Counted from the stretch's first letter, positions 388 through 54,972 are shown. The stretch: 64,000 bases of DNA from an uncultured Candidatus Saccharibacteria bacterium (GCA_964510435.1 CAZEBU010000002.1:81080-145079); one strand, 5' to 3'. Numbers and translations: made by a program. The notes: generated by a model from the letters alone, not told the origin.

Positions 388-774
388 ATGGCTAGAATTG
401 TAGGCATTAACGTTCCGGATGAAAAAAGAGTAGAAACCGCCCTAACCTATATACACGGCGTGGGGGCAACTATCTCGAAGAAAATACTTGAGAAAACAGG
501 TATTGGTCTTGATACTCGAGTAAAAGATCTCTCTGAAAGCGATCTGGCTAAGATCCAAAGTACTATTGTGGAATTACAGGTTACGGTTGAAGGTGAGCTA
601 AAAAGAATAACTAGACAAAACGTGCGCAGGTTAATGGATATCAAATCTTACAGAGGCCAAAGACACCGAGACGGGCTACCGGCAAGAGGACAGAGTACAA
701 AAAGGAATGCTAGAACCAAGAAAGGTAAAAGGAAGACTGTGGGAGGTCAAAAGAGAAAGTTAGTCAAGAAATAA
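388..774 (+). CDS. rpsM: 30S ribosomal protein S13
   Basis: 128 aa; MARIVGINVPDEKRVETALTYIHGVG... and a basic C-terminus typical of S13. Confidence 0.95.
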   Translation: MARIVGINVPDEKRVETALTYIHGVGATISKKILEKTGIGLDTRVKDLSESDLAKIQSTIVELQVTVEGELKRITRQNVRRLMDIKSYRGQRHRDGLPARGQSTKRNARTKKGKRKTVGGQKRKLVKK

Positions 775-780
775 CAATTT

Positions 781-1170
781 ATGGTAAAACCATCAAAGAG
801 AAAAAAATCCAAAGATAAAATAATTCCTTCTAGCGGGAAGGTACACATCAAGGCTGGTTTTAATAATACGCTAATTACCATTACAGACCCGGACGGCAAC
901 ACTCTTTTTACAGGCAGCGCCGGAAAAGCAGGTTTTAAAGGCTCTCGAAAATCAACCCCCTATGCAGCCACTAAAGCTACTGAAACTATTGCCTCCCAAG
1001 CTCGCAATGCAGGGCTAAAAGAGGTTTCCGTAACGGTAAAAGGTCCCGGATTGGGGAGAATACCTGCTATAAAAGCACTAAAAACTGGAGGCTTACACGT
1101 AATATCAATTTCGGACAGCACACCGGTTCCCCACAACGGTTGCAGACCTAAAAAGAAGAGAAGAGTTTAA
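781..1170 (+). CDS. rpsK: 30S ribosomal protein S11
   Basis: 129 aa; [24 protein letters not shown]...TPYAATKA motif of S11. Confidence 0.95.
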
Positions 1171-1172
1171 GA

Positions 1173-1784
1173 ATGGCTAGATATAAAGGACCTAAATGTA
1201 GATTGTGCAGAAGAGAAGGCGAAAAATTATATCTTAAAGGTATGAGATGCCACACTGATAAGTGCGCTATTAACAAAAGAAACTACGCGCCCGGTCAACA
1301 TGGAAACTCCCGAAGGAGAAGAAGAAGACCCTCTGACTACGGTAAACAGTTACGAGAAAAGCAGAAAGCAAAAAGAATTTACGGAGTTCTAGAAAGACAA
1401 TTTAAAAAATATGTTGATGATGCGTTGGAAACAAAAGGGGTATCAGGCGAAAAGCTTTTAAAACATTTGGAAACTAGATTTGATAACTTGGTCTTTCGAA
1501 GCGGTTTTGCTGTTTCTCGGGCTCAGGCCAGGCAGTTTATTAGATCAGGGTTTTTTGAGATAAACGGTAAAGTAGCCACCATACCTTCCATGCAACTGCT
1601 AATTAATGATATTATCAAGCCAGTAAATTTCGAAAAGATCCATTTAAGAGAAGGTTTTGTACTTCCTGAATGGCTTGAAGCCAACGTAAAAGAAAAGTAT
1701 GTAAAATTTGTTAGTCTGCCCACATTAGATAATTCACTAGAAAATATCAATGTGCAGTTAATTATTGAATATTATTCTAGATAA
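1173..1784 (+). CDS. rpsD: 30S ribosomal protein S4
   Basis: 203 aa; MARYKGPKCRLCRREGEKLYLKG N-terminus and an S4 RNA-binding domain. Confidence 0.95.
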   Translation: MARYKGPKCRLCRREGEKLYLKGMRCHTDKCAINKRNYAPGQHGNSRRRRRRPSDYGKQLREKQKAKRIYGVLERQFKKYVDDALETKGVSGEKLLKHLETRFDNLVFRSGFAVSRAQARQFIRSGFFEINGKVATIPSMQLLINDIIKPVNFEKIHLREGFVLPEWLEANVKEKYVKFVSLPTLDNSLENINVQLIIEYYSR

Positions 1785-1795
1785 GGAGAATTTTT

Positions 1796-2725
1796 ATGCA
1801 AATTACTTCTAAAGATTTAAAAATTAGAACCATCTCCGAAACAGATACACAAGGTGTATTTGAGTTCGACCCATTACCTAAAGGTTTTGGTCATACCCTA
1901 GGCAATACACTCAGAAGAGTTTTGCTTACTTCAATGGATGGCGCGGCTATTGCGCAAATTAAGGTTGAGGGAGCCAATCACCAGTTCTCAACTCTAGAGG
2001 GAGTAAAAGAGGATTTAGTAGAAATTATTCTAAACTTGAAAAAAGTTCGCCTAAAAAAATTTAGTGACAACCCGGAAGTGGCTATTTTAAAAGCAGAGGG
2101 ACCAGGAGAAGTAACTGCTGAGAAAATCGAATCTACGGCAGATATAGAGGTTATAAACAAAGACTTGCATATAGCTACCTTAGCTAACAAAAAAACTAGA
2201 CTAGAGATCGAACTAATAGTGGAGTCAGGGGTTGGTTACTCCCCTATGGAAGAAAGAAAAACTTCCAAAGTTGGTGTGATCGTCATCGATGCTTTATATT
2301 CTCCGGTAATTAGTGCCAATCTGGAAATTGAGGAGACAAGAGCCGGAGGTAGAACCGACCTTGACAAACTCGTTCTCACGGTGGAAACGGACGGCACGAT
2401 CAAACCTTCCACGGCTGTCTACAAATCCGCAGGTGTTCTTTCCAGGTTCTTTGAAGTATTAGAGAAGTGGGAGCAAGAACCGGAAAAGAAACCGGAAGAC
2501 ATAGAAATTCAGACCGGAGAAGTTTTGAACATTGAGGAGATCCTCGTTGATGAGCTCCCTTTACAAACTCGAACCGTTAACGCACTTAAAAAAGCAGGTG
2601 TTGATACCTTGGCAAAGTTGTCCAAAAAGTCCGAGGAGGAATTAGCTGACATTAAAAACCTTGGTGAGAAATCAATTTCCGAGATCAATAAATTGCTGGT
2701 CAAAGAAGGTCTGAAAGAAAAATGA
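1796..2725 (+). CDS. rpoA: DNA-directed RNA polymerase subunit alpha
   Basis: 309 aa; N-terminal dimerisation domain followed by a C-terminal alpha-CTD (ELPLQTRTVNALKKAGVDTL...). Follows S4 in the alpha operon. Confidence 0.95.
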   Translation: MQITSKDLKIRTISETDTQGVFEFDPLPKGFGHTLGNTLRRVLLTSMDGAAIAQIKVEGANHQFSTLEGVKEDLVEIILNLKKVRLKKFSDNPEVAILKAEGPGEVTAEKIESTADIEVINKDLHIATLANKKTRLEIELIVESGVGYSPMEERKTSKVGVIVIDALYSPVISANLEIEETRAGGRTDLDKLVLTVETDGTIKPSTAVYKSAGVLSRFFEVLEKWEQEPEKKPEDIEIQTGEVLNIEEILVDELPLQTRTVNALKKAGVDTLAKLSKKSEEELADIKNLGEKSISEINKLLVKEGLKEK

Positions 2726-3192
2726 GACACAGAGTCGCTAAAAAGACATTGCAAAGGGACAAGAGTCATAGAGTAGCATTACTAAAAAACCTTTCCACTA
2801 GCCTTATTATCAACGAGAAGGTTATAACAACAGTTTCCAAAGCAAAGTACTTAAGACCTCATATAGAAAAACTTATTACTAAGGCAAAAAAAGGAAATGG
2901 CTTTAACAACGTCAAGTATATGAAAAGCAAGCTTTTCAAAGAAGATGCTGTACGAAAAATCTTGAGTGATTTAGGCCCAAGATTTAGTAAAAGGCCTGGA
3001 GGCTACACCAGAATAATTAAGATCAAGAATAGAGAAGGTGATAATGCTCCCATGGCAAGAATTGAGTTTGTTGAGAAACCAAGAAAAAAGGAGAAAAAGG
3101 TTACTGAAAAGGTAGAAAAGAAATCTGGGAGAAAAATAACAGCTAAGAATGTTAAGAAAAATAAGGCGAAAAATAAGGAAGCTATAAAATGA
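2722..3192 (+). CDS. rplQ: 50S ribosomal protein L17 with Lys-rich C-terminal extension
   Basis: 156 aa; L17 core (RHRVAKKTLQRDKSHRVALLKNL...) plus a ~45-aa K/E-rich tail. Overlaps rpoA by 4 nt. Confidence 0.9.
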   Translation: MRHRVAKKTLQRDKSHRVALLKNLSTSLIINEKVITTVSKAKYLRPHIEKLITKAKKGNGFNNVKYMKSKLFKEDAVRKILSDLGPRFSKRPGGYTRIIKIKNREGDNAPMARIEFVEKPRKKEKKVTEKVEKKSGRKITAKNVKKNKAKNKEAIK

Positions 3193-3605
3193 AAAAGACC
3201 TATATCCCAAGCAAAAATGAGATCAAACAAAACTGGCATTTGATAGATGTAGATAACAAAATCCTCGGCAGAGTAGCTACGGAAATAGCCACATTACTTA
3301 CAGGAAAAAATAAACCAAGCTATACTCCTCATATCAACGTGGGAGATAAAGTGGTGGTGATCAATGCAGAGAAAATTGCAGTGACAGGAAGAAAATTAAC
3401 CCAAAAAAAATATCACAGATTTACAGGCTACCCCAGCGGAATTAAAACCGAGTCTCTGGAAAAACTACTGGAAAGGAAACCTACGGATGTAATTAAAAAA
3501 GCTGTGTGGGGCATGCTTCCAAACAATAAACTTAGAAAAGAGAGAATCATCAATTTACATATCTACAAAGGTGAGGAACATCCACACCAAGGGCAAATAA
3601 AATAA
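3189..3605 (+). CDS. rplM: 50S ribosomal protein L13
   Basis: 138 aa; MKKTYIPSKNEIKQNWHLIDVDNKILGRVATEIA... typical of L13. Overlaps rplQ by 4 nt. Confidence 0.9.
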   Translation: MKKTYIPSKNEIKQNWHLIDVDNKILGRVATEIATLLTGKNKPSYTPHINVGDKVVVINAEKIAVTGRKLTQKKYHRFTGYPSGIKTESLEKLLERKPTDVIKKAVWGMLPNNKLRKERIINLHIYKGEEHPHQGQIK

Positions 3606-3606
3606 T

Positions 3607-4023
3607 ATGGCAAAAGTAGACTCACAAGACAATTTGGTTATGACCTCAGGAAAAAGGAAAACAGCCATCGCCAGAGTATTCCTTTACCGAGAAAAAGGTG
3701 ATATTTTTGTAAATGACAAAAAGATTGATGATTACTTTACCAAAGAAATTGAACATATTGCTTGGAAAAAACCCTTTCACATCATAGGTGTTTCACATCC
3801 TGATACTCAGTTTAGAGGTACCATTAAAGTTTTTGGTTCAGGGAAATCAGCCCAACTTGATGCAATAACACACGGAATCTCCAGAGCGTTAGCCAAAATG
3901 GACGACGAATATAGGACAGCGCTAGGAAAAGCCGGTTTATTGACCAGAGATCCCCGAATGGTGGAACGAAAAAAGTATTATTTAAGAAAAGCTAGGAAAC
4001 GTCCACAGTATTCAAAGAGATAA
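3607..4023 (+). CDS. rpsI: 30S ribosomal protein S9
   Basis: 138 aa; the C-terminus ...RKARKRPQYSKR is diagnostic of S9. Confidence 0.9.
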   Translation: MAKVDSQDNLVMTSGKRKTAIARVFLYREKGDIFVNDKKIDDYFTKEIEHIAWKKPFHIIGVSHPDTQFRGTIKVFGSGKSAQLDAITHGISRALAKMDDEYRTALGKAGLLTRDPRMVERKKYYLRKARKRPQYSKR

Positions 4024-8494: not shown

Positions 8495-9064
8495 CTACAC
8501 GCCAATTCCTAGTATGTAAACGGGAATATCTATATCTGAAACTCCTCTGGCATTTAAATCCCATACAAACTGTTCAAAATACGACACGCCAGTAGACATC
8601 TTTGCCGCCAACTCTTTCACAGGAACTATCTCAACTCCGGCATCAATATGCCCTAAGTTACTAAAAATGGTCATTTTAGCGCATACATTGTAAACCATAA
8701 AAGAATACTTACCGAATTGCACCTCAACACCTAGCTTATTTTTTATAAAGTCCATTTCCCTGTATGCATTATTAATTTTTATTGGAGAATACCCGTCTAT
8801 AAAGTATTCTGTCGGGTAATCGCATTTCTCTCTTATTCCATATTGCCACCCTTTAGATTTAAAGATTCTTTTAAACTCGTTATTCAATTTTCGTGGAGAG
8901 TACAGTGTCTTACCTGGCATAGTTTTTTCTTTGCTCTCCTTGCTAAAACTCTTTAAAGCATCGTTTAAACCGATTGCTTCTTCAATCTCTTTTAACTCTT
9001 GACTATAATTATTTTTTACATAATCCTCGCCATTAGCGAAGGAATACCTTCCAAATATTTTCAT
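8495..9064 (-). CDS. type II restriction endonuclease, BamHI/BglII/BstYI family
   Basis: 189 aa. IDGY...GVEVQFGKYSF...LGHIDAGVEIVPVKELAAK follows the BamHI pattern (D94 ... GMEFETGNIS ... LKHGEIDLAIILMPIKQLAYY). A Gln occupies the position of BamHI Glu113, as in BglII. Sits 2 nt downstream of a methyltransferase gene. Confidence 0.6.
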   Translation of the reverse strand: MKIFGRYSFANGEDYVKNNYSQELKEIEEAIGLNDALKSFSKESKEKTMPGKTLYSPRKLNNEFKRIFKSKGWQYGIREKCDYPTEYFIDGYSPIKINNAYREMDFIKNKLGVEVQFGKYSFMVYNVCAKMTIFSNLGHIDAGVEIVPVKELAAKMSTGVSYFEQFVWDLNARGVSDIDIPVYILGIGV

Positions 9065-9066
9065 CT

Positions 9067-10005
9067 TTATTTAATCCAACTTATTGGTACCTTCGATACC
9101 TTTTCTTTTCCTGTTGGTTTGTATACTGGTTTACCTAGAGGCCTTATTCTTAATTTTCCAGCTCTTAATTTAGCAATTCTCTTCTCGGCTAAGCTAACAT
9201 ATTTTGCTTCCATTTCCATACCTAATGCATCCCTATTATGCATAATAGCACCAATAACCGTGGAACCCACACCCATAAACGGGTCGTAAACCAAATCTCC
9301 TTCGTTTGTTAATGCTAGAACACATCTCTGAACCAATTCCACGGGAAATTGACAGGGATGACCAGTCTTTTCAGGATGATTGCTTTTTACATTAGGTATT
9401 TCCCAAATTTCCTTCTCCCAATCCCCACAAATTATCTCCCAAAAATCTGAAGGATTCTTTCCTCTTGGATTACCAGAAGGTTTACCTAAATTTTTACCTT
9501 TATAGGAAAGCTTTCCTGGGTACTTTGCAGGAACTCTTACATTATCAAGGTTGAACACATACTCTTTATTCTTATCATTTTTTGTGAACCATAATATTGT
9601 CTCGTACCTACCCGAAAACCTTTTACTAGCGTGGAGTCCGTGACCAAAATGCCAGATTATTCTATTCCTTAGATGAAATCCAACGTCTTTAAAAATATTA
9701 TAAAAATAAATATCTAAGGGAAAAACTTCGCCTTTTTTGATATAGTTTCCAACCTCCCATGCTAAACTGCCGCCGTCTCTTATTTTGGAGTAAATTGCTC
9801 GAGCAAAATCTTTATAAGGATGAAGGTACTTTTCAAAATCTTTTCTTTTCTCATATTCCTTTCCAATATTGTATGGTGGAGAGGTTATAAGTAATTGTAT
9901 GCTATCATCTTCCAATTTTTTTACATGTTTGAATGTATCAACTTGGAGAATATCGTATTTACCAAATTTTTTTTGCATGTTTAATCCCAACTTTGACTGT
10001 GCCAT
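9067..10005 (-). CDS. DNA methyltransferase, beta-class (SPPY motif IV before FxGxG motif I), probable N4-cytosine or N6-adenine type II MTase
   Basis: 312 aa; LLITSPPYNIGKEY (motif IV) followed later by DPFMGVGST (motif I). This order matches the N4C/N6A beta group that includes M.BamHI and M.PvuII. Confidence 0.85.
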   Translation of the reverse strand: MAQSKLGLNMQKKFGKYDILQVDTFKHVKKLEDDSIQLLITSPPYNIGKEYEKRKDFEKYLHPYKDFARAIYSKIRDGGSLAWEVGNYIKKGEVFPLDIYFYNIFKDVGFHLRNRIIWHFGHGLHASKRFSGRYETILWFTKNDKNKEYVFNLDNVRVPAKYPGKLSYKGKNLGKPSGNPRGKNPSDFWEIICGDWEKEIWEIPNVKSNHPEKTGHPCQFPVELVQRCVLALTNEGDLVYDPFMGVGSTVIGAIMHNRDALGMEMEAKYVSLAEKRIAKLRAGKLRIRPLGKPVYKPTGKEKVSKVPISWIK

Positions 10006-21069: not shown

Positions 21070-21690
21070 TCAGAACAACTTAAGTTGTCCATCTTGCTCA
21101 TCATCCTCTTTTTCCTCGATAAAATCACCTGATTTGATCTGTTCCAGCACCTCAGGAATTCTCAAAAAATCCTTTTTCAATGCCTCCAGCATCTTGGGGT
21201 TTCTTAAGCCGGCAGCGGGGTGGTAAATGGGAAAAACAAAGAAATTAGTAGTTTTAATTAATTCACCATGATCTCTAGATATCTTTCCCGCCTTGTAAAA
21301 AAAATTCAAAGCAAAACGTCCTAGACTAACAATCAACACCGGATCGATAGTTTTGATCTGAGCAGCTAAATATGGGATGCAGGCGTGTATCTCGTCAGGA
21401 AGCGGGTCTCTATTTCCGGGAGGACGATGTTTGATAATGTTACCAATCCAAACATCTTCTCTCTTGTAACCCAGTTCGGCTAATAGTCTCTCCAATAACA
21501 TCCCCGCCCTGCCTACAAACGGTCTGCCTGTTTCATCCTCCACAGCACCCGGAGCTTCTCCAATAAATAGTAGTTCCGAATCAACGTTACCCTCACCGGG
21601 AACGCCATGTTTTGCTTGCTTGTACAATCTACATTTTTTGCAATTTATAACATTGGTATCTATTTGTTTTACAATTTCCTCTTTTGTCAT
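21070..21690 (-). CDS. uracil-DNA glycosylase, family 4
   Basis: 206 aa; CKKCRLYK...GEGN...LLFIGEAPG...GRPFVGRAG is the family-4 UDG signature with iron-sulfur cysteines. Confidence 0.85.
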   Translation of the reverse strand: MTKEEIVKQIDTNVINCKKCRLYKQAKHGVPGEGNVDSELLFIGEAPGAVEDETGRPFVGRAGMLLERLLAELGYKREDVWIGNIIKHRPPGNRDPLPDEIHACIPYLAAQIKTIDPVLIVSLGRFALNFFYKAGKISRDHGELIKTTNFFVFPIYHPAAGLRNPKMLEALKKDFLRIPEVLEQIKSGDFIEEKEDDEQDGQLKLF

Positions 21691-22214
21691 TTGATCTTCC
21701 CTAATTGTTCCAAGGTACTTATCACCTTTAAAGTGATGCGCCGCTTTCCGCGTTGGTATATTCGATCCGAAATAAAATAAGCCTCTCTAAAAGTCATCCA
21801 GAAATACTGGTCAAACTGAGTTTCACTTATTTCCAATTTGTCCGAAGAGGAATCAACGGTACAAAAATAGTATTCCTTGCCCATCATAGCCACTTCATTA
21901 CCCCCATCATCAAGTAATGTGCCCACTTTATGCCTTCCCGGTTTAAACTCCATTCTATCTATTTCCACAAACTCCGCATTACTATATGCAAGATTCTCTG
22001 CAAAACTCTTTCCCAACTCTTCGACTATTACCCTTTTTAAGGCGCTTATAGGCTCTTCTTTATTATTGATCCTCCCTTGGGGAAGTTGCCATAATCCATA
22101 TTCCTTTTTATAAAACATAAGTATTTTATTTTGGTTAATGACGCAGGCCACTACTCCAGGTCTGAAACCTTCTTTCCTTACTTCATCCAGTTGTTTAGGC
22201 GTAGGTGTTTTCAT
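21687..22214 (-). CDS. NUDIX hydrolase
   Basis: 175 aa; Nudix box QLPQGRINNKEEPISALKRVIVEELG (Gx5Ex7REUxEExGU). Confidence 0.8.
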   Translation of the reverse strand: MKTPTPKQLDEVRKEGFRPGVVACVINQNKILMFYKKEYGLWQLPQGRINNKEEPISALKRVIVEELGKSFAENLAYSNAEFVEIDRMEFKPGRHKVGTLLDDGGNEVAMMGKEYYFCTVDSSSDKLEISETQFDQYFWMTFREAYFISDRIYQRGKRRITLKVISTLEQLGKIK

Positions 22215-22217
22215 AAC

Positions 22218-23297
22218 TCACTGAGGCAGGTATTGTTTGAGATTCTCTTGGGTTAAGTGAACTTCTGTTGCAGAGCCTTCCACTATGTTTTTGGCTACTT
22301 TCCTACATATTGATTCCAGTGTTCTTTCCAAACTTCTGATTCCTGTGTCATAACCAAACGGCCTAACTATGCCCGGCCAAAGGTCGTTATCAATAACCAG
22401 CTCACCGGGCTTAAGACCGGATCTTTCAAAAATTTGGGGCAGTAGGAAATCTCTAGAAATAATCACCTTTTCTTCATCTGTGTAGGAGGGCATCTTGATC
22501 ACTTCCATCCTATCCATTAAGGCAGTGCTTATCGTACCCGTATTATTAGCCGAACACACAAAAAGAACTTCGGATAGATCAACTGGAAAATCCACATAGT
22601 GGTCACGAAATTCATTACTTTGATTGGGATCTAGAATTTCTAATAATACCGCCATGATATCACTCAGCAAACCTCTCTCTCCACTGGCCTTATCTATTTC
22701 ATCCAGTAAAATAACAGGGTTTCTGGCACCCGTTTTTATCAAAGCCTTAACTATTTGTCCGGGCTCTGCTTCCGGCATAGACTTACTGCGCCCCCTAAGT
22801 TCCAAGGTAGAACCAATACCGCCCATGGCAATTCGAACAAATTTACGATCCAAAGACTTAGCTATGGACATGGCTAAAGTCGTTTTTCCTACACCTTGCA
22901 GACCAACAAACAATAAAACCGGTGTTTTAGCAAACATATTACCACCTCGTTTATTAATAAGGATCAAGGACGCCAGATATTCTAGAATTCTCTCCTTAAC
23001 AAAATACATTCCGTAGTGGGTTGAATCTAAAATTTCCTTGGTGTTATCCAGATCCAACTTATCCACGGTTCTTTTATCCCAAGGTATTTTGGAGATTATA
23101 TTTACATACCGGGAGAGAATATCAAACTCCGAGGAATAATGCCCCATCTTGGCCATCCTGTTTAACCTATTTAGCATTTGCCCAAGTCTACTTTCCAACA
23201 ACGGGGGCAATCCCGAAATCTCATCGAGCGTTTTTGACAACTGCTCTAATTCTTCAAAGATATATTTATCTACATCACTCATTATTTCTAACCACAA
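22218..23297 (-). CDS. Lon-type AAA+ ATPase module without LAN or protease domains
   Basis: 359 aa. Collinear with E. coli Lon residues ~230-600 (VPWNARS.../ILDTDHYGLERVKDRILEYLA/GPPGVGKTSL.../LLDEIDK.../MEVI). Ours reads IPWDKRTV...ILDSTHYGMYFVKERILEYLA, GLQGVGKTTL, LLDEIDK, MEVIKMPSYTDEEK. The ORF ends at the AAA/protease domain boundary; no Ser-Lys protease domain is present. Confidence 0.8.
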   Translation of the reverse strand: MWLEIMSDVDKYIFEELEQLSKTLDEISGLPPLLESRLGQMLNRLNRMAKMGHYSSEFDILSRYVNIISKIPWDKRTVDKLDLDNTKEILDSTHYGMYFVKERILEYLASLILINKRGGNMFAKTPVLLFVGLQGVGKTTLAMSIAKSLDRKFVRIAMGGIGSTLELRGRSKSMPEAEPGQIVKALIKTGARNPVILLDEIDKASGERGLLSDIMAVLLEILDPNQSNEFRDHYVDFPVDLSEVLFVCSANNTGTISTALMDRMEVIKMPSYTDEEKVIISRDFLLPQIFERSGLKPGELVIDNDLWPGIVRPFGYDTGIRSLERTLESICRKVAKNIVEGSATEVHLTQENLKQYLPQ

Positions 23298-24210
23298 ATT
23301 TATTAAACTGCTTATCTTTTACTTCATTTATTAAAGGCAGAAGATCCTCCATAGGTGAGTAGACCATCATAAGATCAAGGACCTCCTCAAAATTATCGAA
23401 ACTCATAAATAAAAGCTGGCCGCTGTCAGGTAATTGTGTCTTATAGCTTTTGTACTTAGGATTGTGCGCAATATTTTTCGAAATATCACCCGCAGACTCC
23501 TCTACACTTACCAGGAAGGGCTCATACTCGGTAATAACTAAAGCTTGTTTTACTTTACTAAGAAAATACTTTTCTGACTCCACAGTTTCTAAGAATTCCT
23601 TGTTCATAATCTTACTTTCCTGCTCATCCAGCATCAAAACAAGCGCTAGCCGCCATTCCTGATCAATTTTTTGACCGAAAATAATGTATCTTCCCGAAAG
23701 GTAATCTCCAAAATCATTTAGTATTCCCTCTTCGTCGAGTGCACCCCAAAAGAATTGGTAGGAAGCTAGTAAATCACTCCCTATAATATAAAAATCCACC
23801 TCGAAAGGAATGTACTTAGTTAAATCCCCAACGTCAAAAACGATATTCGGTTGTTCTAGGTTATAAACGACGGTATTATCATATCTTTCTTCCGGAATCT
23901 CCATAGCTACGTCCTTAACAGCCATTTCTTCTCTATCTTTTAGCTTGTTTTGCGTAAAAATGATGGAAATTATGGAAACAGCGGCTGCAACTAAAACCAG
24001 AGCAAAAGCAGTGAGGAACTTTTTATTGATATGGAGCTTAACCCTTACTTTCTTTTTTTCTTTTTCTGGGGGAACAAAAGAAGTTCTCTTAATTTGGAAG
24101 GTGGTAGTGTGGTTAATTAGTTTGTCATCTAATTTGTGACCACAAGATCTACAAAAGTAACCCTCATCATCATGTAAGTTTTTATTACAATTAGGACAGA
24201 TTCTATTCAC
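23275..24210 (-). CDS. hypothetical zinc-ribbon membrane protein
   Basis: 311 aa; N-terminal CPNC...CRSC zinc ribbon, one TM helix (FLTAFALVLVAAAVSIISIIF), then an extracytoplasmic domain. Overlaps the Lon-like gene by 23 nt. Confidence 0.5.
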   Translation of the reverse strand: MNRICPNCNKNLHDDEGYFCRSCGHKLDDKLINHTTTFQIKRTSFVPPEKEKKKVRVKLHINKKFLTAFALVLVAAAVSIISIIFTQNKLKDREEMAVKDVAMEIPEERYDNTVVYNLEQPNIVFDVGDLTKYIPFEVDFYIIGSDLLASYQFFWGALDEEGILNDFGDYLSGRYIIFGQKIDQEWRLALVLMLDEQESKIMNKEFLETVESEKYFLSKVKQALVITEYEPFLVSVEESAGDISKNIAHNPKYKSYKTQLPDSGQLLFMSFDNFEEVLDLMMVYSPMEDLLPLINEVKDKQFNKFVVRNNE

Positions 24211-26793: not shown

Positions 26794-27459
26794 TCAATCT
26801 TTATAGGGAGGGGTTTTAGAAATAATTCCTTTTAATAAAGCCTTAGCTGTCTTTTCATCCGGAGCTAATTCCCATTGAGTGGCTTTTTGCAGTACCAGAA
26901 GTGAAAGTGAACTAGTCTTAGGTTCTACGACATTAACAAAACCGAATCTCTCGTTCCTATCGGTTATGTCAATATTAATTATCTTTGAAGTTTTTGAAGC
27001 TTTGTCCAAACTCCTGTAGATCTGCCCTAGATCAAAAAGATTTTGCGCACCAATAATAAATAGGACATCAAAATCGTAACCTGCAATTTTCGATCTAATT
27101 TTCTCTCTACTGTTAAAGTTTGGGGGGATAGGACTTATGGTCAAATATAAAATACCCTCATCCGTCGTATAATTAACCTTTGAGGCTTGGGTATCAGAAT
27201 AATCAATGGAAACAACCAAATTTCTTTGTTTAACTTCTCTGGTGATCTTATTTGCATTAATAAGGTCTTTCCCTTCCTCAGGCACTTTCCCGGGATAAAT
27301 AAAGGTAACTTCTTTCTCACTGTTTATTAACATGTGATAAATTCCTACACTAGCACAATAGGCATCCAAACCTGCTACCTTAGAGGTCATTATGGCAATA
27401 TTCTTTGCACCATTAAGCAATGTTGCTACCTTGTCTTTCACCACATCATTATTATTCAT
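26794..27459 (-). CDS. DHH-family phosphoesterase-like protein (degenerate motifs)
   Basis: 221 aa; NIAIMTSKVAGLDAYCASVGIYHMLI resembles DHH motifs I-II of NrnA-like proteins. The DHH triad position reads SIDYS. It occupies the slot usually held by rbfA or an nrnA-like gene between infB and rpsO. Confidence 0.45.
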   Translation of the reverse strand: MNNNDVVKDKVATLLNGAKNIAIMTSKVAGLDAYCASVGIYHMLINSEKEVTFIYPGKVPEEGKDLINANKITREVKQRNLVVSIDYSDTQASKVNYTTDEGILYLTISPIPPNFNSREKIRSKIAGYDFDVLFIIGAQNLFDLGQIYRSLDKASKTSKIINIDITDRNERFGFVNVVEPKTSSLSLLVLQKATQWELAPDEKTAKALLKGIISKTPPYKD

Positions 27460-50345: not shown

Positions 50346-50467
50346 GTGTGGATTATATCACACACGAGAGTGCTTTTAGCTGGTATATAGGCGTATTCTT
50401 ACGGCTATAATAGTTGACAGTGGTTCTCGTTTATGATATATTTCCAGAGTTAATTTATGGAAATTAT

Positions 50468-50506: not shown

Positions 50507-51019
50507 ATGACATCCCATAAAAACAACGCCCAAGAAGTAAATTTAAGTAAATTTATGCTAGACAAAAACAAATTGTATATAACTAAAGACGGACTAAAGA
50601 AATTGAAAGGCGAATTAAAGGCACTTATCGAGGTTAAAAGACCGGAAGTTGCTCTGAATATTCAGTCCGCTAGAGAAATGGGAGACATTTCGGAAAATGC
50701 AGCTTATGACGAGGCCAAAAGAGAACAGGCGTTTGTGGAAGGCCGGATATCAGAGTTAGAGGAGATTATCAAGAATTCAAAGATCGCTGAGGTGAGTAAA
50801 GGAGACGCTATTGTCGTAGGATCAAGGGTTGTGGTACACATTGATGGTGATGAAGAAGAGTTTCACATTGTGGGCGCTCCTGAAGCCAACCCCACAGAAG
50901 GAAAAATTTCTCACGAATCACCTCTTGGTTCCTCTCTGCTTGGTAAAAAAGTGGGAGATAAAATTAATGTCGAAGTTCCTATCGGCAAACTAACCTATAC
51001 CATATTAAAAATAAAGTAG
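50507..51019 (+). CDS. greA: transcription elongation factor GreA
   Basis: 170-aa ORF; an N-terminal coiled-coil with acidic tip (GDISENAAYDEAKREQAF) and a C-terminal FKBP-like domain. The true start is probably the internal Met at about 50555. Confidence 0.9.
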   Translation: MTSHKNNAQEVNLSKFMLDKNKLYITKDGLKKLKGELKALIEVKRPEVALNIQSAREMGDISENAAYDEAKREQAFVEGRISELEEIIKNSKIAEVSKGDAIVVGSRVVVHIDGDEEEFHIVGAPEANPTEGKISHESPLGSSLLGKKVGDKINVEVPIGKLTYTILKIK

Positions 51020-51053
51020 AAATCTTGCTACCAACAATAGCTAGATTAGTTAA

Positions 51054-51078
51054 AACGCCTCAGGAGGCGTTTTTTTAT
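51054..51078 (+). terminator. rho-independent terminator of greA
   Basis: aacgcct-cagg-aggcgtt is a 7-bp stem, followed by ttttttt. Confidence 0.65.
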
Positions 51079-51107: not shown

Positions 51108-53204
51108 ATGGCTAATTTAAAAGAGTTAAGAAAAGAAAGGATAAAAAAGCTCGAAAAACTCAGAGAAATAGGTATTGATCCCTATCCTTCCAGCTCTAAA
51201 AAAGATCTTTCAAACCTTGAGGCCACCATTAATCATGAGGATTACAGAAACAAATCACTACATCTCACCGGCAGAATTCTCTCTTTGAGAGAGCATAATA
51301 AGCTGGTTTTTATAGATCTGCACGATTATTCGGGTAAGGTACAACTTTATATCAAAGATGACAAACTAAAAAAGACTAACGTTCAGGAGCAAATCCTAGG
51401 GTTTTCTGATCTGCATCTTCTCGATATTGGTGACTTCATAGAAGCTGAAGGGAAAATGACAAAAACAAAAACCGGTGAAGTTTCTCTGCAGGTATCTTCC
51501 CTAAAGATCCTAGCTAAAGCGATCCGTCCTTTACCGGAAAAGAGGGAGGGATTAAAGGATGCGGAAACAATTTTTCGAAAAAGATACCTGGATCTGGCCA
51601 CCAAACCTGAACGGAGAGAACTTTTTGCCAGAAAATCAAGATATTGGCAAGCTAGCAGAAATTTCTTGAATAACAAGGGGTTTATTGAAGTAGAAACTCC
51701 CATTTTGGAACATGTTACCGGCGGTGCCGATGCCAAACCGTTTATTACTCATCATGACGCTCTTGACGAGGATTTTTTCTTGAGGATCTCCTCAGAGTTA
51801 TATTTAAAAAGACTAATTGGGGGCGGATTCGAAAAAATATACACCTTTGGGGCAAACTTCAGAAATGAGGGCCTGAGCGACGAGCACCTGCAGGAATTTT
51901 ATCAACTAGAATGGTACTGGGCTTATGCAGACTACCGACAAAATATGGCCTTGGTAAAAGAAATGTTTAGACATATAGCCAAAGAGATCTATCAAAAAAC
52001 CGATTTCGTGAAAAACGATTATAAGTTTGACCTGGCCGACAAGTGGGAAGAAATCGAGTATGTAAAAATAATTAAGGATAAATTTAAAGTAGATGTCTTT
52101 GAAACCTCCGACGAGATGGTGCTAAATATACTTAAGGAAAATAATGTCACCCTCCCGGGCACGGTTAATAGAAACAGATTAATAGACAATTTATGGAAAC
52201 TTGCCCGCAAAGATATTTCCGGACCAGCCTTTTTAATTGATCTACCAAATTTTATATCACCATTGGCAAAAGAACTCCCAGGCAGTAAGCGTCTAACGGA
52301 GCGGTTTCAGGTTATCATCGCTGGTAGTGAGTTGGGAAATGGCTACAGCGAGTTGAACGATCCTTTCGATCAGTTAGCAAGGTTTAAGGAACAGCAAGCG
52401 GCCAGGGATGCCGGTGATGAGGAAGCGCAAATGCTAGATATTGATTATGTAGAGATGCTCGAATACGGTATGCCGCCAACTTCCGGATATGGACAAAGTG
52501 AAAGGATCTTCTGGTTTTTAGAAAATATCACCGCCAGGGAAGGAACTCTTTTTCCTCAGATGAGAAAAAAGGTCGATGAAGTAAATAAGGATATTTATCA
52601 ACTATCTGCGGCAAACCACCAAAAAGCATCACCCGAATTACCGGAGCTACCTAGGACAGTAGAATTTTCCAAAGAGGCGGTACACCCCCTCTTGGAAAAT
52701 TTTGTAGACGATAACTATCAAAAATTACACGCCAAAATGGTGGCCAAGGGTATGGAGGCCTATGCCGAATCATTCGGGGAAGATAAAGATCTCTGGTATA
52801 TCACTGGTTTACTCCATGATCTAGATTATTTCAAATTTCCGGATGAACATCCTTTAGTAGAGCTTGTCTGGTTTAAAAAATGGCACTTTCCCGACCAATT
52901 TCTGCATGCGGTTGCTTCTCATGCCCATAAAAAAACAGGTGTTGAGCCGGAAACCAAAATCGCTCATGCTTTAATGGCTATTGATGAGCTGGCAGGCTTT
53001 TTGTATGCCTACTCGCTAATGAGACCGGAAGGTTTTACCGGTATGAAAGCCAAATCAGTTAAGAAAAAGTTCAAAGACAAAGCCTTTGCCAGAAAAGTAG
53101 ATAGAGAAGAAATTAAAGCGGGTTTTAGCAATCTAGGGATAGATTTCTCCAAACATATAGACTTTCTAATAGAAATCTATCGAGAAATGGATGAATTTAA
53201 ATAG
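51108..53204 (+). CDS. lysS: lysyl-tRNA synthetase (class II) fused to a C-terminal HD-domain
   Basis: 698 aa. Residues 1-~490 hold the OB anticodon-binding domain and class II core (FRNEGLSDEHLQEFYQLEWYWAY, motif 3 GYGQSERIFWFL). The C-terminal ~190 aa carry an HD domain (LHAKMV...LLHDLD...ASHAH...AIDE). Confidence 0.9.
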   Translation: MANLKELRKERIKKLEKLREIGIDPYPSSSKKDLSNLEATINHEDYRNKSLHLTGRILSLREHNKLVFIDLHDYSGKVQLYIKDDKLKKTNVQEQILGFSDLHLLDIGDFIEAEGKMTKTKTGEVSLQVSSLKILAKAIRPLPEKREGLKDAETIFRKRYLDLATKPERRELFARKSRYWQASRNFLNNKGFIEVETPILEHVTGGADAKPFITHHDALDEDFFLRISSELYLKRLIGGGFEKIYTFGANFRNEGLSDEHLQEFYQLEWYWAYADYRQNMALVKEMFRHIAKEIYQKTDFVKNDYKFDLADKWEEIEYVKIIKDKFKVDVFETSDEMVLNILKENNVTLPGTVNRNRLIDNLWKLARKDISGPAFLIDLPNFISPLAKELPGSKRLTERFQVIIAGSELGNGYSELNDPFDQLARFKEQQAARDAGDEEAQMLDIDYVEMLEYGMPPTSGYGQSERIFWFLENITAREGTLFPQMRKKVDEVNKDIYQLSAANHQKASPELPELPRTVEFSKEAVHPLLENFVDDNYQKLHAKMVAKGMEAYAESFGEDKDLWYITGLLHDLDYFKFPDEHPLVELVWFKKWHFPDQFLHAVASHAHKKTGVEPETKIAHALMAIDELAGFLYAYSLMRPEGFTGMKAKSVKKKFKDKAFARKVDREEIKAGFSNLGIDFSKHIDFLIEIYREMDEFK

Positions 53205-53207
53205 AAT

Positions 53208-54434
53208 ATGAATAATACCGAACAAACTGCCTCTGCTCAAGAAAGTACTGAACCCGAAGATAGTATTTTAACTAAGGAGGTTATACAAAAGAAAAAAGAA
53301 CGTTTTTCTCAGGGAGTTAAAACAGCCATCTTTATTTCTATCGGTTTTCTCATCTTCTTTTCTTTGCTTTTCATTTTCATCACTATTTACAATCGCACCA
53401 AGGACACCTATGTAGTTTCCACCACAGATCCTGAAAATATAGGGCAGGAGATTGTTATCATCAACCCGGAAGAGAAGCAGCCGAAAGAAGAGTGGGAAAA
53501 ATACGGCAATGAGAAATTTAGGTTTTCCTTTAACTACCCTCCCGGGGACAGATTTTTCCTTGACGAAGAGATCAGGGAGGATTATTTTGTAAAAATCATT
53601 GCCGATGACACTATACCGCATGAGAACACCACAGGTAGAAATTTGATCAAGGGGTATATTTTCGTCATCAATCCGCTGCAAATAGCTATCAGAGATATTG
53701 ATAGCGTAGTCAGTCTAAAAAGAGAGTGGTATGTTGAACAATGTGATCAATCCGCAAATGTAACTGGTATAAAAAGTGTGGTTCTTAATGAAGTAGAGGG
53801 CAAAGGTTTTGAAGTCTTTAATTGCAATAGTGATTATCGAGTAGCCTACTACGCCGCTAACGACCTCGTTTATGAAGTAACACAAGTTTATAAAGGGGAC
53901 ATAGGTTTTGAACAACTGTATAAAACTACTGTGGGACTTATTAATGATTCGGTCTTGATCAACATCACTCCTCCTGATACCGGGCCTTACACGTTATTTG
54001 AAAATGTGAGAGAGGGTTTTTCCTTTGAATACGACAAAACCATGGACAACGAATGCTGTTTTGTACCCTCGCCACCGGATAGAACTGCAAAAATAAATAT
54101 TACTTTATCCGAGGGAAGCAACTTAGCTGCTATTGGTTTCTTTACCATCCGCTCAGATCCAGCAAAAACTTTACTTGAATACCTAGAAGAAAAAAAGCAG
54201 ATCCTCATCGACGACTATAAAGTTATTAAAGGGCATGAGCCAAACGGTACAGTAACAGAGTTTAAATTAGGAGGACAAAAAGCTTACTATCTTTCCGGTT
54301 ATTCTTGGAAAGGAAATGACTTGATCTACACAACTCTGCCAAAAAGTAATAGCTACCTCATTATTTCCAAAACTAATCTTTCAGATGAAAACTACCAAGC
54401 CATCGTGAACTCTTTGAAAATACTTACCCGATAA
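53208..54434 (+). CDS. hypothetical N-terminally anchored protein
   Basis: 408 aa; one TM helix (AIFISIGFLIFFSLLFIFITIY) and a large extracytoplasmic domain. Confidence 0.5.
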   Translation: MNNTEQTASAQESTEPEDSILTKEVIQKKKERFSQGVKTAIFISIGFLIFFSLLFIFITIYNRTKDTYVVSTTDPENIGQEIVIINPEEKQPKEEWEKYGNEKFRFSFNYPPGDRFFLDEEIREDYFVKIIADDTIPHENTTGRNLIKGYIFVINPLQIAIRDIDSVVSLKREWYVEQCDQSANVTGIKSVVLNEVEGKGFEVFNCNSDYRVAYYAANDLVYEVTQVYKGDIGFEQLYKTTVGLINDSVLINITPPDTGPYTLFENVREGFSFEYDKTMDNECCFVPSPPDRTAKINITLSEGSNLAAIGFFTIRSDPAKTLLEYLEEKKQILIDDYKVIKGHEPNGTVTEFKLGGQKAYYLSGYSWKGNDLIYTTLPKSNSYLIISKTNLSDENYQAIVNSLKILTR

Positions 54435-54972
54435 ACTCAGTGATCAAACTTTTAAAAAGGCTGAGGTCTCCGTAGTAATGGTCGTTTCCTTCAAGTTCTA
54501 TGGTTTTGTGATTTTCCACTTCCTGCACTTTTAGATAAGTGCACATATCTTGGTAGAAAAATACAGGATCCAAAGATTTTTGGATAAAAAGGGTGGAGAT
54601 AGTGTACTTTTTGACCCATTTGTCAACTTCAAAACCACAGTACTTTCCCCATTCAACGGGTAAACCTACAAAAACGCATTTTTTAGGTTTTAAGATCCCT
54701 TTAAAGATTCCCTTCAGACCTAGTAGCGCTCCGGCAGATTTGCCAAAAACCAGGTAGTTTTCGTACTGATCTATAACTTTTGACACCTCCAAAAGTTCAT
54801 GGTCCAGCAGAATTACCGGCTCTCCGGTTTCCCAATGTCTATAATATTGAATATAAGTTTTGTTGAAAAGAGGTTTTAAAACTTCTTCCACATCCCGAAT
54901 CCATTTCTTGTGTGCAAAGCTATTTCCTGAAAATAATATTAGATCCATACTTTTATTTTGAGTGGGCAGCAA
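54424..54972 (-). CDS. small alpha/beta-hydrolase-fold protein
   Basis: 182 aa; nucleophile elbow GxSxG (FGKSAGA). Confidence 0.45.
   Translation of the reverse strand: MLPTQNKSMDLILFSGNSFAHKKWIRDVEEVLKPLFNKTYIQYYRHWETGEPVILLDHELLEVSKVIDQYENYLVFGKSAGALLGLKGIFKGILKPKKCVFVGLPVEWGKYCGFEVDKWVKKYTISTLFIQKSLDPVFFYQDMCTYLKVQEVENHKTIELEGNDHYYGDLSLFKSLITEFIG

Follow-up and report, generated by a model that had tools for sequence, protein, structure and literature searches.

A lysyl-tRNA synthetase joined to an uncharacterised HD phosphohydrolase module in Patescibacteria

Why would a lysyl-tRNA synthetase (LysRS) carry a phosphohydrolase at its C-terminus, and what might that second enzyme act upon? 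The question is raised by one gene in a 64,000-nucleotide stretch of DNA (hereafter the window) from an uncultured Candidatus Saccharibacteria bacterium (GCA_964510435.1, CAZEBU010000002.1:81080-145079), in which a single open reading frame (ORF) joins a class II LysRS to a domain of the HD superfamily. Aminoacyl-tRNA synthetases with appended domains are well known, and LysRS is the main cellular source of diadenosine tetraphosphate (Ap4A). A sequence-only reading of the window had interpreted the gene as a synthetase fused to an HD phosphohydrolase domain with the fold of YqeK-type Ap4A hydrolases and other nucleotide phosphohydrolases; the synthetase–phosphohydrolase fusion proves real and conserved, and the YqeK identity does not hold. 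A genuinely bifunctional LysRS with an active HD hydrolase is very probable. In the literature searched there was no paper on a LysRS–HD fusion, or on another synthetase with a catalytically intact HD phosphohydrolase.

The synthetase half is complete. The earlier view of one ORF with an entire LysRS core is exact, with Pfam and NCBIfam in agreement, and all three Pfam domains of the protein exceed their gathering scores (Table 1). The NCBIfam lysine--tRNA ligase models span aa 5-488 end to end (NF001756, 502 bits against a cut-off of 468; TIGR00499, 464 bits against 427.6, profile positions 3-495/496), so that hidden Markov models (HMMs), domains and motifs alike assign the protein to the class II bacterial LysRS represented by these models. 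The motif 2 sequence FRNEG (aa 251-255), E408 and the motif 3 residue Arg466 are invariant in 89 aligned fusions, the alignment to which the residue counts below refer. The ATG start codon is right, because the N-terminus agrees with the homologue consensus, and a check of the DNA frame places codon 52728-52730 ('cac') at H541. No further Met occurs close to where the HD domain begins, so that this organism would produce the domain only within the fusion. At 90% identity, the window protein forms a singleton cluster.

Before any function is considered, it must be asked whether a sequencing, assembly or frameshift error merged two separate genes. In a search with the full-length protein, the best 120 matches, at 52-70% identity, all share the same architecture at about 700 aa with coverage of 97-100%, save for the 870-aa P0240, and most carry precomputed PF01336, PF00152 and PF01966 annotations. 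They are drawn from independent NCBI, JGI, ENA and Logan assemblies and include Roizmanbacteria, Woesebacteria and unclassified Patescibacteria; the named proteins among them are labelled just "lysine--tRNA ligase", with the second domain unannotated. In a scan of species-representative genomes, 12 loci encode LysRS residues 1-488 together with the HD domain in a single uninterrupted frame; ten of these loci are complete (653-758 aa) and two are cut by a contig end. The coding linker also varies in length across the fusions, unlike a simple read-through, and both halves are conserved in frame. Errors or pseudogenes do occur in such metagenome assemblies, as the broken lysS of the related contigs L001 and L009 shows; an artefact is nonetheless vanishingly improbable for the window gene and, as far as sequence data reach, was rejected. 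The fusion recurs across assemblies, contrary to the artificial, unconserved join that the sequence-only reading had entertained, and separate but adjacent lysS and HD genes are found in four other genomes. The comparison thus shows a real fusion, widespread in Patescibacteria (tiny bacteria of the candidate phyla radiation) and under purifying selection in both halves: FRNEG, Arg466 and all candidate HD catalytic residues are invariant.

In the two interrupted loci (L001:2907-5014 and L009:2251-4373), a 347-aa N-terminal part of LysRS is followed by the LysRS C-terminus joined to HD, and the HD end stays in frame with that C-terminus despite the upstream break. The break may stem from a frameshift or an error of assembly, or else mark a pseudogene or a gene that is split.

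The halves are joined by a poorly conserved, flexible tether. The synthetase closes with a T-K-x-I-Y motif at aa 493-497, whose T is N493 in the window protein, within a predicted short helix (aa 491-497). This tail is an ordinary part of LysRS in the clade, and not specific to the fusion, because the unfused enzyme of the relative L002 also carries it, ending TTKEIYGIKE followed by two stops. Beyond the tail, column entropy rises to ~2.7-3.8 bits over aa 498-518, and the spacing from FP483 to L529 varies between 37 and 78 residues. The AlphaFold2 (AF2) model of the full-length protein shows two confident modules with a predicted template-modelling score (pTM) of 0.68, and the confidence measure pLDDT falls below 50 in the linker at aa 503-509. 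The predicted arrangement fits a flexible tether rather than a fixed interface.

The HD half retains a complete set of candidate catalytic residues. The measured length of 178 aa is close to the ~190 aa first estimated, and the motifs LHAKMV, LLHDLD, ASHAH and AIDE picked out earlier are real: their H541, H570-D571, H605 and D626-E627 are invariant, as are D573, H581, K653, K654, R666 and H683. PF01966 covers aa 541-629 at 35.3 bits (cut-off 22; E 1.6e-8) and the H...HD...D ligands of that superfamily are conserved; the AF2 model of the isolated domain has an all-alpha fold, with a pLDDT of 96 and a pTM of 0.92. With its ligand pattern H...HD.D...H...H...DE the domain may hold a dinuclear site, for which D573, H581 and H683 might supply a second site. 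A polybasic signature, SVKKKFKDKAFA..R, lies at aa 650-666. In domain numbering, where residue 1 is aa 521, the invariants of the subfamily to which the window domain belongs (subfamily A) are H21, G47, L48, H50, D51, D53, H61, H85, G110, A114, P120, K133, F140, A141 and R146, with D106, E107, K134, K136 and H163 nearly so. When a second LysRS-fused subfamily (B, described below) is added, H21, H50, D51, D53, H61, H85, F140, A141 and R146 are still invariant, and both consensus sequences show the basic signature SVKKKFKDKxFA..R.

The domain belongs to a large family of HDIG-type proteins that are free-standing and ~180 aa long. At E <= 1e-3 a profile search recovered 5,809 clusters (50% identity), and at E <= 1e-30 it recovered 615. 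The family occurs in Patescibacteria, Solirubrobacterales and other Actinomycetota, Verrucomicrobiota (Opitutaceae), Rhodothermales, Caldisericota, and Dehalococcoidales among the Chloroflexota. The HDIG model TIGR00277 matches 30 of 30 family members at E <= 1. No close structural relative was found: all Foldseek matches have E >= 5e-3 with a TM-score of ~0.5. The best structural match of the model is the HD domain of the glycyl-tRNA synthetase (GlyRS) beta-subunit. HD-GYP proteins come next in this comparison (12.4 and 12.1), with 12.2 for plastid GlyRS, 11.6 for PgpH, 11.4 for the uncharacterised structure 2pq7, and only 9.8 and 9.2 for YqeK. A single-sequence PDB search with the tail of the window protein gave chance matches only.

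A further question is whether the domain is a YqeK, that is, a member of COG1713/TIGR00488, the symmetric Ap4A hydrolases of Firmicutes, which are often fused or adjacent to the ATP-adenylyltransferase NadD. The two share an HD-superfamily fold of ~180-190 aa and coincide at H21, H50-D51 and H83-85 (domain numbering), and YqeK gives the best, though weak, PDB sequence-profile matches of the window domain (E 0.0036), covering the first 45 residues only, up to the HD doublet. TIGR00488 does not match the window domain at E <= 1, and it matches only 2 of 30 family members, with a best E of 0.05. All HD phosphatases, YqeK included, share an Arg three residues before the first His (PMC8177086); in the fusions this position is Q (60) or L (29), and the position two residues before the His is K or R in just 54 of 89. 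The catalytic Lys of Sp-YqeK, K62, stands three residues after the HD Asp (PMC11857287), where every one of the 89 fusions has Y, W or F (position 574). The six-ligand dinuclear site of YqeK has the order H, HD, H, H, D (H21, H50, D51, H83, H109 and D127 in B. halodurans; PMC8177086). Its fourth His (H109/H117) finds no conserved counterpart among the fusions between H605 and D626, which lie 21 residues apart, and H607 is variable (P, H or S). A comparison of the C-terminal domain with YqeK, as the sequence-only reading had proposed, thus finds agreement at the first four ligand positions but none at the fourth His, the -3 Arg or the +3 Lys. The HMM, these three signature residues and the structural rank led to the rejection of membership, and the specific YqeK interpretation is wrong, because all four YqeK features that could be tested (HMM, -3 Arg, +3 Lys and fourth His) are lacking. 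The domain is a distinct, uncharacterised HD subfamily.

The association of this family with lysS takes several forms in Patescibacteria: direct fusion, overlapping adjacent genes, a LysRS carrying DUF2000 with a separate HD gene, and multi-domain chains. The two genes are separate yet adjacent in four distinct genomes (WWE3, represented by L002-L004; L017; L018; L019), and gene order shows that, where this lineage keeps the genes unfused, HD lies directly downstream of lysS. WWE3 has the order greA-lysS-HD-serS, in which the stop of lysS overlaps the start of HD. In L018 and L019 a LysRS–DUF2000 gene precedes the HD gene, and in L061 the HD gene lies 2.5 kb downstream. Multi-domain LysRS chains always terminate in HD, whether built as LysRS–DUF2000–HD (P0365), LysRS–tRNA_bind–HD (P0240), LysRS–tRNA_bind–B3/4–HD (P0453, 1072 aa) or LysRS–HAD–HD (P0421, 918 aa).

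The DUF2000 segment of ~150 aa occupies the LysRS C-terminus in the Dojkabacteria-type relatives L018:2319-4221, L019:24-1417 and L061:2322-4250 (PF09391, E 1e-23 to 1e-25). We take it to have a peptidyl-tRNA-hydrolase-like fold; a literature search returned nothing relevant on DUF2000. The presence of B3/4, the fold of the PheRS-beta editing domain, on a LysRS is unusual in its own right.

Subfamily B was found at L024, where it is also fused to LysRS and is 34% identical to the window domain. It is 50-57% identical to its best matches, which include stand-alone proteins of Caldisericum and Dehalococcoidales, and its nearest relatives P0241 and P0242 are likewise LysRS-fused, with serS following P0242. 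Either an independent fusion or an in-situ replacement would explain this second subfamily, and both imply selection for an HD enzyme at that position.

These patterns bear directly on whether the linkage has any LysRS-specific meaning. The HD protein could be a general house-cleaning or salvage nucleotidase encoded downstream of lysS in a compact operon, which was fused repeatedly through loss of an overlapping stop and start in streamlined genomes, the fusion being tolerated thanks to the flexible tether. Several observations suit such an origin: stop and start overlap in the unfused state, hence one small mutation suffices for fusion; the HD tree mixes fused with unfused members; the linker is unconserved, predicted to be disordered and without docking; and the HD family is widespread, with unrelated neighbours and miscellaneous partners (AMMECR1, beta-propeller, MazG). 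However, the linkage persists across divergent classes of Patescibacteria, in three architectures and with two HD subfamilies, and it survives the insertion of 150-400 aa of other domains between LysRS and HD. Moreover, LysRS is by far the dominant partner, linked to 22 of the 150 best HD-family representatives against single examples of every other partner. Such an uncoupled origin is quite unlikely.

The reading we favour, which remains tentative and falls short of an even chance, is that the HD module hydrolyses an Ap4A-type by-product of LysRS. The module would act on something that LysRS makes or binds, preferably the adenylylated or dinucleoside-polyphosphate by-products of its active site (Ap4A, Ap3A, Ap4N), with stray aminoacyl-adenylate as a possible further substrate. 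Co-translation at a ratio of 1:1 would hold the hydrolase close to the enzyme from which most of these compounds arise in the cell, and the fusion would form a synthase-plus-hydrolase pair like Rel/SpoT for (p)ppGpp or GGDEF-HD proteins for c-di-GMP. Several findings speak for a nucleotide substrate. The closest catalytic structural neighbours are cyclic-dinucleotide phosphodiesterases; YqeK is the only sequence-level similarity of the domain in the PDB; and half of the family members have weak matches to NF005519, probably owing to the HD portion of that model (positions 188-261). Within the family, P0477 (656 aa) is a PAS-GGDEF-HD diguanylate cyclase fusion that likewise couples a dinucleotide synthase to an HD hydrolase, P0478 (310 aa) joins the HD domain to a MazG nucleotide pyrophosphohydrolase, and in P0421 a HAD phosphatase stands between the synthetase and HD. 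In addition, the invariant polybasic patch would suit a polyphosphate chain. Other partners are AMMECR1 and a PQQ-like beta-propeller (P0434, 370 aa; P0403, 555 aa); the GGDEF, MazG, AMMECR1 and beta-propeller fusions are each represented by one cluster.

A number of points weigh against an Ap4A-type substrate. The domain lacks every specific YqeK feature tested, including the Arg before the first His that HD phosphatases have in common (PMC8177086). The substrate is not fixed by the structural matches, because all of them are distant, and channelling between the modules finds no support in the full-length AF2 model, which predicts no docked arrangement of HD and LysRS. Outside Patescibacteria, no family member lies within 3.5 kb of lysS, which implies that the ancestral role was not LysRS-specific. 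ORF clustering over 63 loci, combined with Pfam, found no consistent neighbours of the family there and gave no clue to its function; those seen were MlaD/ABC components, adenine glycosylase, inositol monophosphatase, M24 peptidase, an EPSP-synthase-family protein, amidohydrolase, GH57/NIF3 and UvrA. In several relatives the segment separating LysRS from HD contains tRNA-related modules. A 175-aa NUDIX protein is encoded elsewhere in the window (21687-22214, minus strand; PF00293, E 4.7e-9), and its gene overlaps the end of a uracil-DNA glycosylase-family gene (21070-21690). This protein is a possible alternative Ap4A or RNA-cap hydrolase, so the organism need not rely on the HD module for Ap4A removal.

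A bolder form of the Ap4A proposal, which we regard as doubtful, would have the HD module found a new Ap4A/NpnN hydrolase family unrelated to YqeK and tethered, in Patescibacteria, to the enzyme that makes the alarmone. If true, the fusion would be a self-limiting Ap4A synthase/hydrolase, the Ap4A counterpart of bifunctional Rel/SpoT, and its stand-alone relatives, ~5,800 clusters at 50% identity, would provide the missing Ap4A hydrolase in many phyla without ApaH and YqeK.

The tRNA-related modules invite a different substrate, namely tRNA(Lys) or the tRNA 3' end, with the HD module repairing 2',3'-cyclic or 3'-phosphate ends as a phosphodiesterase or phosphatase; class II CCA-adding enzymes, which bear an HD domain, offer a model for such repair. 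In a variant, the HD domain and the appended tRNA modules would together form a tRNA quality-control arm on LysRS. The best structural match, the GlyRS-beta HD domain, approaches the acceptor arm, the inserted tRNA_bind and B3/4 modules are directed at tRNA, DUF2000 may be so as well if its presumed fold is right, and the phosphatase-type Arg is absent. On the other side, the GlyRS-beta domain has lost its HD doublet and is most similar to PgpH and HD-GYP proteins, so that the likeness may mark a shared structural subgroup. The family is also a stand-alone one of ~180 aa without an RNA-binding domain, its distribution is patchy and its gene context variable outside Patescibacteria, a general tRNA-end repair enzyme tethered to a single synthetase would be odd, and the MazG, GGDEF and HAD partners point to free nucleotides. 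The two tRNA-directed versions together are somewhat improbable. The remainder of the probability falls to readings other than an Ap4A-type, tRNA-directed or uncoupled role.

The HD domain of L024:3780-4394 matches NF009343 (PRK12703; positions 177-336/339, E 7e-11), a model named tRNA (cytidine(56)-2'-O)-methyltransferase, whose domain make-up is presumed from its name and length. The match suggests that archaeal Trm56 proteins may possess a homologous C-terminal HD domain; a literature search on such a combination gave nothing relevant. P0485 (339 aa), a suspected Trm56–HD fusion, was set aside: its N-terminal half has no Pfam or PDB match, and the Trm56–HD link thus has PRK12703 of NCBIfam as its sole source.

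Comparison with known systems sharpens what is distinctive about the fusion. In the GlyRS-beta HD domain the catalytic His-Asp doublet is gone (E. coli has Ser393-Lys394 in its place); the domain lies within the beta-subunit and has a role in allostery or in binding the acceptor arm of tRNA (PMC8464048). It is therefore catalytically dead and internal, whereas the window domain keeps all its catalytic residues invariant, stands C-terminal on a flexible tether and belongs to a family that is also free-standing. HD-GYP and PgpH proteins, the nearest active structural neighbours, have the ligand motif H...HD...H...HH...D, with the GYP triad in HD-GYP (PMC8177086); the window domain has neither the HH doublet nor the GYP triad, and neither 7TM nor REC partners. 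With YqeK it would have its function in common if the Ap4A hypothesis holds, in which case Rel/SpoT (RSH) enzymes, each an alarmone synthetase and HD hydrolase in one polypeptide, would be the conceptual analogue. A precedent for a LysRS fused to a second enzyme that uses the LysRS product is LysX, the mycobacterial MprF–LysRS fusion. The LysRS core of the window protein matches the LysX model over its full LysRS portion, at 414 bits and below the cut-off of 742, but the LysX addition is an N-terminal membrane lysyl-transferase that consumes Lys-tRNA, and that of the window protein is a soluble phosphohydrolase at the C-terminus. Beyond class II LysRS and the HD superfamily, these comparisons indicate that the window protein is a member of none of the families considered.

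The fusion offers a concrete starting point for experiments on a large HD family that is uncharacterised. Should Ap4A prove to be the substrate, the HD enzymes would add a third HD- or ApaH-type pathway of alarmone turnover in bacteria, and the fusion would be the first of an Ap4A synthase with a hydrolase; should the substrate be tRNA, a modular tRNA quality-control arm (tRNA_bind, B3/4, DUF2000, HD) would be mounted on LysRS in minimal genomes. Either outcome would inform how ultra-small symbiotic bacteria police the by-products of translation.

Table 1. Coordinates of the LysRS–HD gene, its parts and its upstream neighbourhood in the window
Feature	Position	Strand	Basis or remarks
greA, upstream neighbour	50507..51019	+	PF03449 and PF01272
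Terminator-like hairpin AAAACGCCTCAGGAGGCGTTTT with TTTATT T-run, in the gap between greA and the fusion	51052..51073	+	pattern match only
LysRS–HD fusion ORF	51108..53204	+	698 aa plus stop, ATG start
OB-fold anticodon-binding domain, aa 53-135	51264..51512	+	PF01336 tRNA_anti-codon, E 6.4e-13
Class II LysRS catalytic core, aa 152-485	51561..52562	+	PF00152 tRNA-synt_2, E 5.9e-67
LysRS C-terminal tail, aa 489-497, KVDEVNKDIY	52572..52598	+	T-K-x-I-Y motif, invariant Y497
Variable low-complexity linker, aa 498-520, probably disordered	52599..52667	+	column entropy and pLDDT
HD phosphohydrolase module, aa 521-698	52668..53201	+	HDIG-type subfamily, uncharacterised

Around the fusion, the order greA-lysS-HD is common to L001-L004, and in the window, too, greA lies directly upstream. 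An extended -10 promoter-like site with TG occurs upstream of greA (50414-50442, plus strand; 11 of 12 matches), and the fusion gene, which follows the terminator-like hairpin, may depend on read-through or on an unrecognised promoter. In WWE3 and the relatives at L085, serS follows HD; it is not at the matching position in the window. There, the next two genes downstream of the fusion encode a 408-aa protein whose N-terminal region includes a hydrophobic stretch (53208-54434, plus strand) and a 182-aa protein (54424-54972, minus strand), neither with a Pfam match.

An Rfam scan of the whole window gave no match to a tRNA, rRNA or riboswitch. The window is ~92% coding with a GC content of ~0.39, and a ribosomal-protein/rpoA cluster occupies 388-4023. 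At 8495-10005 (minus strand), in a stretch of lower GC (~0.34), a BglII-like restriction endonuclease (PF09195, E 5e-21) adjoins an N6/N4 DNA methylase (PF01555, E 1e-49), an apparent type II restriction-modification pair. Weak matches to a TFIIB zinc-ribbon (23275-24210) and to DHH (26794-27459) were also recorded.

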